Source: Escherichia coli (GTDB lineage Bacteria > Pseudomonadota > Gammaproteobacteria > Enterobacterales > Enterobacteriaceae). From it: a stretch of DNA of 64,000 nucleotides. The notes below the pieces were generated by a model. It was not told the DNA's origin, did not search any database, and worked only from the letters and a program-made list of their open reading frames with translations. Both the position numbers and the translations under genes were made by a program. Position 1 is the first letter of the stretch. Every line of letters starts with the position of its first letter. Positions 21,870-23,002 of this stretch are shown here, piece after piece. The DNA is taken from NCBI RefSeq assembly GCF_030384885.1, contig NZ_CP128613.1; one strand, given 5' to 3'.

Positions 21870-22064
21870 TTCCCTCTCCGGTGGCTAACGCTGCCGGAGT
21901 ATTTCATGGGGAATTTGCGAGTCCGCTTCCGCTGAAATGTAAAAGTTGCAGTCCGCTAAAAATACTTCTGAATTCGCTGTCCAAAGATAAAAACTGCCTG
22001 CTGCATTGGGTGTAAATCGTGGTTATTGTCGCGTCATCTTAAATTTGAGGGGTGACGGAACGCC

Positions 22065-22955
22065 ATGACAATATCGACAACTTCCACGCCGCATGATGCG
22101 GTATTTAAATCTTTTTTACGCCATCCAGACACCGCGCGGGATTTTATTGATATTCATCTTCCCGCGCCGCTGCGCAAACTGTGTGATTTAACGACGCTCA
22201 AACTGGAACCAAACAGTTTTATTGATGAAGATCTGCGGCAATATTATTCCGACCTCTTGTGGTCTGTGAAAACGCAGGAGGGAGCGGGTTATATTTATGT
22301 GGTGATAGAGCACCAAAGTAAGCCGGAGGAATTAATGGCTTTTCGCATGATGCGCTATTCCATCGCGGCGATGCAAAACCATCTGGATGCAGGCTATAAA
22401 GAGCTTCCATTGGTGATCCCAATGCTGTTTTATCATGGTTGCAGAAGTCCTTATCCTTATTCACTCTGCTGGCTTGATGAATTTGCCGAGCCTGCGATAG
22501 CCCGCAAAATATATTCATCGGCTTTTCCGCTGGTGGATATTACCGTGGTGCCGGATGACGAGATTATGCAACATCGCAAAATGGCGCTGTTGGAGTTAAT
22601 TCAGAAACATATTCGTCAGCGCGATCTGTTGGGATTAGTCGACCAGATTGTTTCGCTGCTAGTTACAGGGAACACTAATGACAGACAGCTAAAAGCCCTG
22701 TTTAATTACGTATTACAAACGGGAGATGCCCAGCGTTTCCGTGCATTTATTGGTGAGATAACAGAACGCGCACCACAAGAAAAGGAGAAACTGATGACCA
22801 TTGCTGACAGATTACGTGAAGAAGGCGCAATGCAGGGCAAACACGAAGAAGCTCTGCGTATTGCTCAGGAGATGCTGGAGAGAGGTTTAGACAGAGAATT
22901 AGTTCTGATGGTGACCCGACTTTCGGCAGACGATCTTATCGCGCAAAGCCACTAA
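22065..22955 (+). CDS. rpnB: Recombination-promoting nuclease RpnB (YhgA-like, PD-(D/E)XK family)
   Basis: 296-aa ORF starting [18 protein letters not shown], typical of Rpn/YhgA-like proteins; sits between hisP and yfcH as recalled for yfcI/rpnB. Confidence 0.85.
22794..22955 (+). CDS. Candidate intragenic small protein (RpnS-like antitoxin) from an internal in-frame start within rpnB
   Basis: AAGGAG at 22782-22787, 6 nt upstream of an in-frame ATG at 22794, inside rpnB; would encode the C-terminal 53 aa. Confidence 0.35.
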
Positions 22956-23002
22956 TCCTGTAACACCGGGAATTAACTGGCGGATGTTTGCAGTACACCA
23001 CA

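Follow-up and report, generated by a model that had tools for sequence, protein, structure and literature searches.

Small Proteins from Internal Starts of rpn Genes

Retapamulin ribosome profiling by Meydan et al. (2019 preprint) shows peaks at in-frame internal starts of the genes rpnA to rpnE, and those authors term these positions major initiation sites. For rpnB of Escherichia coli K-12, an Onc112/retapamulin ribosome-profiling signal is found at the internal in-frame start (PMC10400941; Meydan 2019 preprint). Zhong et al. (2023, PNAS, PMC10400941) detected all five small Rpn proteins from chromosomal genes carrying an SPA tag. K-12 rpnB with a mutated internal ribosome-binding site and start codon inhibits growth more strongly than the wild type (PMC10400941). 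The SOS induction that depends on RpnB is blocked by the small protein RpnB-S and not by RpnA-S, and this block is lost when a stop codon is placed at "D29" of RpnB-S (PMC10400941). In RpnA, the exchanges K240R, E241D, and M244L abolish RpnA-S, a direct inhibitor of DNA cleavage in vitro that is able to form a complex with the long form RpnA-L (PMC10400941).

The rpnB gene described here lies in a stretch of 64,000 nucleotides from E. coli, referred to below as the window. A preliminary description, made from the sequence of this window alone, stated that Rpn/YhgA-like nucleases are reported to make, from an internal start, a C-terminal small protein that neutralizes the toxic full-length enzyme. 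This is published, including the case of RpnB-S in K-12 (PMC10400941). The further reading of the rpnB 3' end as an intragenic antitoxin is supported by the K-12 rpnB experiments, by the mapping of the published start to M244, and by the conservation of the codons concerned in homologs. The proposed tests, i.e., profiling of translation starts, a western blot with a tagged C terminus, and mutation of the internal start and Shine-Dalgarno (SD) sequence with a toxicity readout, have already been done in K-12. The internal start of rpnB is the published start of RpnB-S and is already known; the finding itself adds no new biology, and the case shows that a sequence-only reader is able to recover a real internal start.

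The rpnB Locus

The segment of the window around rpnB corresponds to the E. coli chromosomal region hisJQMP-rpnB-yfcH-folX. A 1-kb query containing rpnB shows 100% identity to E. coli 2013C-4282 and 98% nucleotide identity to K-12 MG1655; both records carry the gene under the name rpnB, with hisP and yfcH as neighbors. The full-length open reading frame of rpnB (yfcI) extends from 22065 to 22955 on the plus strand, ends with the stop codon TAA at 22953-22955, and encodes RpnB-L, a toxic PD-(D/E)XK nuclease of 296 amino acids. This assignment follows the open reading frame list, the RefSeq annotation of the identical and K-12 loci, and the Rpn family model NCBIfam TIGR01784, which matches RpnB with 187 bits against a cutoff of 52. 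The Transposase_31/YhgA-like PD-(D/E)XK domain (Pfam PF04754, E value of 2.7e-91) occupies amino acids 8 to 209, encoded at 22086-22691 on the plus strand, and contains D11, D63, E82, and Q84. These four residues are essential in RpnA (Kingston 2017) and are invariant in an alignment of the RpnB of the window with RpnA, RpnC, RpnD, and RpnE. As the nuclease domain and the residues essential in RpnA are present, the RpnB-L toxin encoded by this allele is probably active.

The RefSeq records of K-12 (L001, 7650-8540) and of a further locus (L088, 20066-20956) show a single rpnB coding sequence without an rpnB-S product; mcrB-S, a comparable internal-start product, does carry an annotation in K-12. 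On 698 contigs, the K-12-type 53-residue RpnB-S has a protein call of its own. The main importance of the present case lies in annotation: the RefSeq records examined list one rpnB product, and the gene encodes two whose roles oppose each other. Any deletion or cloning of "rpnB" therefore affects toxin and antitoxin together.

The genes rpnB and yfcH are convergent, and their stop codons lie 47 nucleotides apart (22956-23002). No terminator-like hairpin was found between these stops. The pair yfcH-rpnB, like rpnA-bioH, has been named among the convergent transcript overlaps ("excludons") of E. coli (2025 paper, PMC12288877). Upstream of rpnB, a terminator-like hairpin of 10 pairs, 7 of them GC, is located directly after hisP at 21876-21899, and no sigma-70-like promoter was called between this hairpin and the rpnB start.

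The Internal Start of rpnB

The SD sequence of the internal start, AAGGAG, is located at 22782-22787 on the plus strand and forms codons K240 and E241 of rpnB. It is identified by direct reading, anti-SD pairing, and codon conservation. It is followed by the spacer AAACTG (22788-22793) and the in-frame ATG at 22794-22796 on the same strand, which is M244 of RpnB-L and M1 of RpnB-S, as indicated by the sequence, by conservation, and by alignment with the RpnA-S crystal structure (PDB 7TH0); the arithmetic (22794 - 22065)/3 = 243 places this ATG at codon 244 of the 296-codon frame. The rpnB-S frame (22794-22955, plus strand) encodes a 53-residue antitoxin identical to the C terminus of RpnB-L, with a three-helix HTH_Rpn_C domain as judged from translation, an AF2 model, a fold match, and Pfam PF27070. 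Base-by-base reading confirms the AAGGAG that had been described 6 nucleotides ahead of an in-frame ATG at 22794 within rpnB as exact, and translation from 22794 returns the quoted 53-residue RpnB C terminus. The residue "D29" of RpnB-S corresponds to D272 of the K-12 protein, for which the window has Glu. Because 272 - 243 = 29, the published start of RpnB-S is M244, i.e., position 22794 of the window.

The window contains 5 instances of AAGGAG-N4-9-ATG, compared to 2.3 ± 1.5 in shuffled sequences, at least 5 instances being reached in 8 of 100 shuffles; the motif count by itself is not significant. The remaining four instances are all located at the first codons of long open reading frames (153 to 388 amino acids), and the motif thus marks real starts in this window. 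The anti-SD pairing at M244 amounts to -8.7 kcal/mol against a median of -2.0 kcal/mol and ranks second in strength among the 423 ATGs that lie internally and in frame within 55 putative genes of the window. The region of the SD and ATG shows no more RNA structure than shuffled sequences (z = +0.81), and the centroid structure leaves the SD unpaired.

Another codon of rpnB, M91 (ATG at 22335), surpasses all other internal in-frame ATGs of the window in SD pairing (-9.5 kcal/mol), with the arrangement GGAGG, 5 nucleotides, ATG at 22324-22337. The GGAGG arises from a synonymous change of GAA to GAG at E88, for which K-12 has GGAAG. Of about 4766 E. coli genomes, only 17 carry this 50-nucleotide allele, and the rpn paralogs do not have it. 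If used, the M91 start would lead to a 206-residue fragment containing the S domain and lacking D11, D63, E82, and Q84. The SD and ATG at M91 are probably due to chance.

Conservation among rpn Homologs

The homolog set comprises 80 rpn genes with 56 to 99% protein identity, drawn from Enterobacterales and a single genome of Shewanella. An ATG is present at the aligned M244 column in 77 of the 80; the other 3 are unaligned at this column, the script having picked an open reading frame without the tail. SD pairing at the internal start has a median of -8.5 kcal/mol, compared to -1.5 kcal/mol at 656 other internal ATGs of the same genes (Mann-Whitney p = 9e-46). The codon choice within the SD is nearly fixed: Lys at codon -4 is AAG in 64/64 cases, while AAG makes up 30% of the Lys codons elsewhere in these genes, and Glu at codon -3 is GAG in 68/75 cases versus 41% elsewhere. 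The rare replacements of Lys at codon -4 (AGG, GAG, and GGA) preserve the purine run. In the flanking Pro, Thr, and Ala codons, all four synonyms are used with nearly equal frequency. These statistics count related sequences as independent, and the scrambled neighboring codons show ample divergence. The synonymous-site conservation is decisive sequence evidence that the internal start is under nucleotide-level selection. Frozen SD codons beside scrambled fourfold sites provide a cheap way of telling functional internal starts apart from SD-like motifs that occur by chance.

In 77 of 77 homologs, the internal SD exceeds that of the primary start in strength (medians of -8.5 and -3.8 kcal/mol, respectively). 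Together with the lack of extra RNA structure at the internal start, this fits an antitoxin that would be made in excess. All five K-12 rpn paralogs share an SD 5 to 7 nucleotides ahead of a conserved M-T-(I/L)-A.

Isolated frozen synonymous sites are also seen in the 77 homologs at F228 (TTT in 73/75, within a TTTaT string at 22746-22750) and at T284 (ACC in 66/71, 22914-22916). A wider conserved nucleotide motif was considered at both sites and rejected, as none is present around them; they are isolated like about ten other sites in the gene.

Candidate Internal Promoter

A scan of synonymous-codon entropy over the whole gene shows, besides the SD, one dense cluster of frozen sites, at N205 (AAT in 67/70), D206 (GAC in 68/70), F213 (TTT in 67/67), and N214 (AAT in 70/73). 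When Met and Trp codons are set aside, the gene has 22 highly conserved third positions, of which 8 fall into the region 22664-22706; conservation of the blocks CTAATGACAgcCAG and gCTGTTTAATTA is at least 85% across 77 diverged rpn genes. This conservation points to a candidate sigma-70 promoter for a short rpnB-S transcript at 22674-22708 on the plus strand. It contains the -35-like element ATGACA (22678-22683), a 17-nucleotide spacer, and the -10-like element TTTAAT (22701-22706), with a 10/12 match to a sigma-70 promoter and a predicted transcription start at about 22712-22717. A standard sigma-70 consensus scan of the plus strand from 22300 to 22790 called no promoter; it skipped the candidate because the -10 element has T at position 2. 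The candidate agrees with the dRNA-seq start site reported inside every rpn gene (PMC10400941). The conserved block, about 90 nucleotides upstream of the internal start, is probably this reported internal promoter.

A second role of the same 35-nucleotide block (CTAATGACAgcCAG ... gCTGTTTAATTA, 22674-22708) as an operator to which the HTH-like RpnB-S would bind, by itself or together with RpnB-L, appears doubtful. If it did serve as an operator, the antitoxin would set its own level like classical type II antitoxins, and this would account for the unexplained changes of the L:S ratio in the literature.

Structure and Allelic Variation of RpnB-S

Modeling of the 53-residue product by AF2 with an alignment of 45 tails gives a pLDDT of 80.7 and predicts one long helix and two short ones (residues 3-29, 34-41, and 45-52). 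The top and only strong fold match of this model in the PDB is the crystal structure of RpnA-S (7TH0), with a probability of 1.0 and TM scores of 0.68/0.77. Residue 1 of 7TH0 aligns with residue 244 of RpnB, with an E value of 0.003 for the sequence match, and the K-12-type 53-residue product carries an entry for Pfam PF27070 (HTH_Rpn_C). RpnB-S is thereby predicted to fold as the three-helix bundle of RpnA-S. Designer pentatricopeptide proteins, which head the PDB sequence search with E values down to 5e-14, were rejected as homologs: a single repeat has an i-Evalue of about 60, and it is the presence of ten near-identical repeats that inflates the total. Amino acids 255 to 285 of RpnB (22827-22919) resemble the consensus repeat of these proteins (GKLDEALKLFEEMVEKGIKPDVV), probably a generic likeness between helical hairpins.

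Helix 1 of RpnB-S contains a zone of gain and loss of four-residue repeats (22824-22850, plus strand), recognized from E. coli alleles and homolog tails, in which the window has the short form. The homolog tails vary from 52 to 81 amino acids, mostly in steps of 4, with xEGx repeats in helix 1; four-residue repeat variation is likewise described by Zhong et al. 2023 (PMC10400941). In E. coli, rpnB shows RpnB-S classes of 53 and 57 amino acids, the longer one reading REEG-RNDG-LILG-KREE in this zone. The 57-residue form, with one extra four-residue unit and with SD and ATG kept, occurs in two sampled variants. Among 5426 complete E. coli genomes, 4755 contain the 50 nucleotides around the internal start, and in 3915 the sequence is identical. 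Between the window and K-12, 3 of 53 residues differ in the S region (E29/D, L38/M, and A45/P), compared to 3 of 243 in the rest of RpnB.

Two further kinds of variation are seen in single E. coli assemblies. In the five places examined where RpnB-S has a protein call of its own (L089 to L093, with the small gene at 2501-2662 of each locus), the SD and the S frame are intact and the upstream rpnB-L is broken, through W66* and a 1-nucleotide deletion in L089 and through indels of 1 to 2 nucleotides in L090, L091, and L093; L092 resembles a low-quality assembly. These cases may reflect loss of the toxin with retention of the antitoxin, or sequencing errors. In E. coli PK12 (L086, 1104-1850), a same-strand gene of a trans-sulfuration enzyme family lies downstream of rpnB in place of the convergent yfcH, and RpnB-S has a different C-terminal end (...SPEELLNQKQ), which suggests a recombination breakpoint at or within the rpnB 3' end.

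Interpretation

The best explanation, with a probability of about 0.93, is that rpnB is a gene-within-a-gene toxin-antitoxin unit, with RpnB-L as the toxin and RpnB-S, made from the internal start at 22794, as the antitoxin. The whole frame would give the PD-(D/E)XK DNA endonuclease RpnB-L, which is expected to damage DNA when expressed without its partner. From the second in-frame start (SD at 22782-22787, ATG at 22794), the C-terminal three-helix domain of 53 residues would be made on its own as RpnB-S. Most initiation at this start probably takes place on a short transcript from the internal promoter about 90 nucleotides upstream, at a position proposed from conservation. RpnB-S would then bind the identical domain in RpnB-L via its long first helix and hold the nuclease inactive, a binding mode proposed by analogy with RpnA, for which it has been shown. 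Gain and loss of four-residue repeats in helix 1 would alter partner specificity. Since one and the same DNA encodes both proteins, covariation of toxin and antitoxin is automatic.

The present analysis establishes that the sequence elements are present, identical to those of K-12, and under nucleotide-level selection. The use of the internal start, the production of RpnB-S, the increased toxicity upon its loss, and its block of RpnB-induced SOS are established experimentally in K-12 by others. Nothing in the evidence contradicts the toxin-antitoxin reading.

The competing explanations concern the role of RpnB-S, the reality of its start, and the position of that start. RpnB-S could be made from M244 and have transcriptional autoregulation or another HTH-like regulation as its main job, with the neutralization of RpnB-L as a secondary effect. 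Its tail belongs to a Pfam family named HTH_Rpn_C, HHpred relates it to HTH motifs, unexplained differences in the L:S ratio "suggest additional regulation" (PMC10400941), and an operator function, besides that of a promoter, is conceivable for the conserved block at 22674-22708. Such a division of roles is nevertheless very improbable, as RpnB-S provided in trans gives a specific block of the SOS induction by RpnB when RpnB is under the control of a foreign rhamnose promoter; because of this foreign promoter, the effect is independent of the native one. The direct action of RpnA-S on DNA cleavage and its complex with RpnA-L also argue against it, and the published text consulted on Rpn does not report DNA binding by any RpnS.

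That AAGGAG and ATG represent a mere Lys-Glu dipeptide and an internal Met, without separate initiation in the strain of the window, can be put at hardly any probability. The bare motif count, not significantly above shuffles, would allow for such a coincidence, and so would the equally strong second SD and ATG at M91, which looks like the chance product of one synonymous change. Against this stand the identity with a K-12 site whose initiation and product are demonstrated, a codon choice frozen against codon bias in 77 homologs, and the fact that the remaining four motif instances of the window are all real gene starts. A start at another in-frame codon is just as implausible. M256 (ATG at 22830) lies in frame 12 codons past M244 behind a weak purine-rich stretch, yet its SD pairing reaches merely -4.8 kcal/mol, it is a nonconserved codon within the variable repeat zone, the published D29 numbering fits M244 only, and the equivalent of M244 is the first residue of the RpnA-S crystal construct. 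On its weak SD, its nonconservation, and the D29 numbering, M256 was rejected as an alternative start, and the start of the RpnB-S antitoxin is placed at M244.

Comparison with Known Systems

The closest described system is the RpnB-L/RpnB-S pair of K-12 (PMC10400941), which represents the same gene at the same site (hisP-rpnB-yfcH), with an identical SD, spacer, ATG, and conserved upstream block. Both loci encode a 296-residue L form and a 53-residue S form, and the proteins are 98% identical. They differ in six amino acids, three of them in S, and in the GGAGG before M91, which is present in the window and missing from K-12. RpnA-L/RpnA-S (7TH0) has the same architecture as RpnB: its internal start likewise involves codons K240, E241, and M244, and its S domain has three helices; the RpnB-S model superposes on RpnA-S with TM scores of 0.68/0.77 at 43% identity. 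In contrast to these similarities, RpnA is a paralog with 66% whole-protein identity, RpnA-S has 49 amino acids, and it does not neutralize RpnB-L.

The plasmid-encoded RpnP2-L/S belongs to the same family and follows the same gene-within-gene logic. RpnP2 protects against T-even phages, and in the literature, phage defense is demonstrated for RpnP2 only (PMC10400941), whereas for the chromosomal RpnB, which sits among housekeeping genes, an anti-phage role is hypothetical. No model of PADLOC 2.0.0 matches rpnB, and a placement of rpnB in a defense island was not found, the neighbors being housekeeping genes. Outside the Rpn family, McrB-L/McrB-S and Cas10d/Cas11d, the latter with Cas11d cited as an internal-start example by Zhong et al. 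2023 (PMC10400941), belong to unrelated families and are not described as toxin-antitoxin pairs; they resemble RpnB in that a shorter, internal in-frame product modulates or complements the long form.
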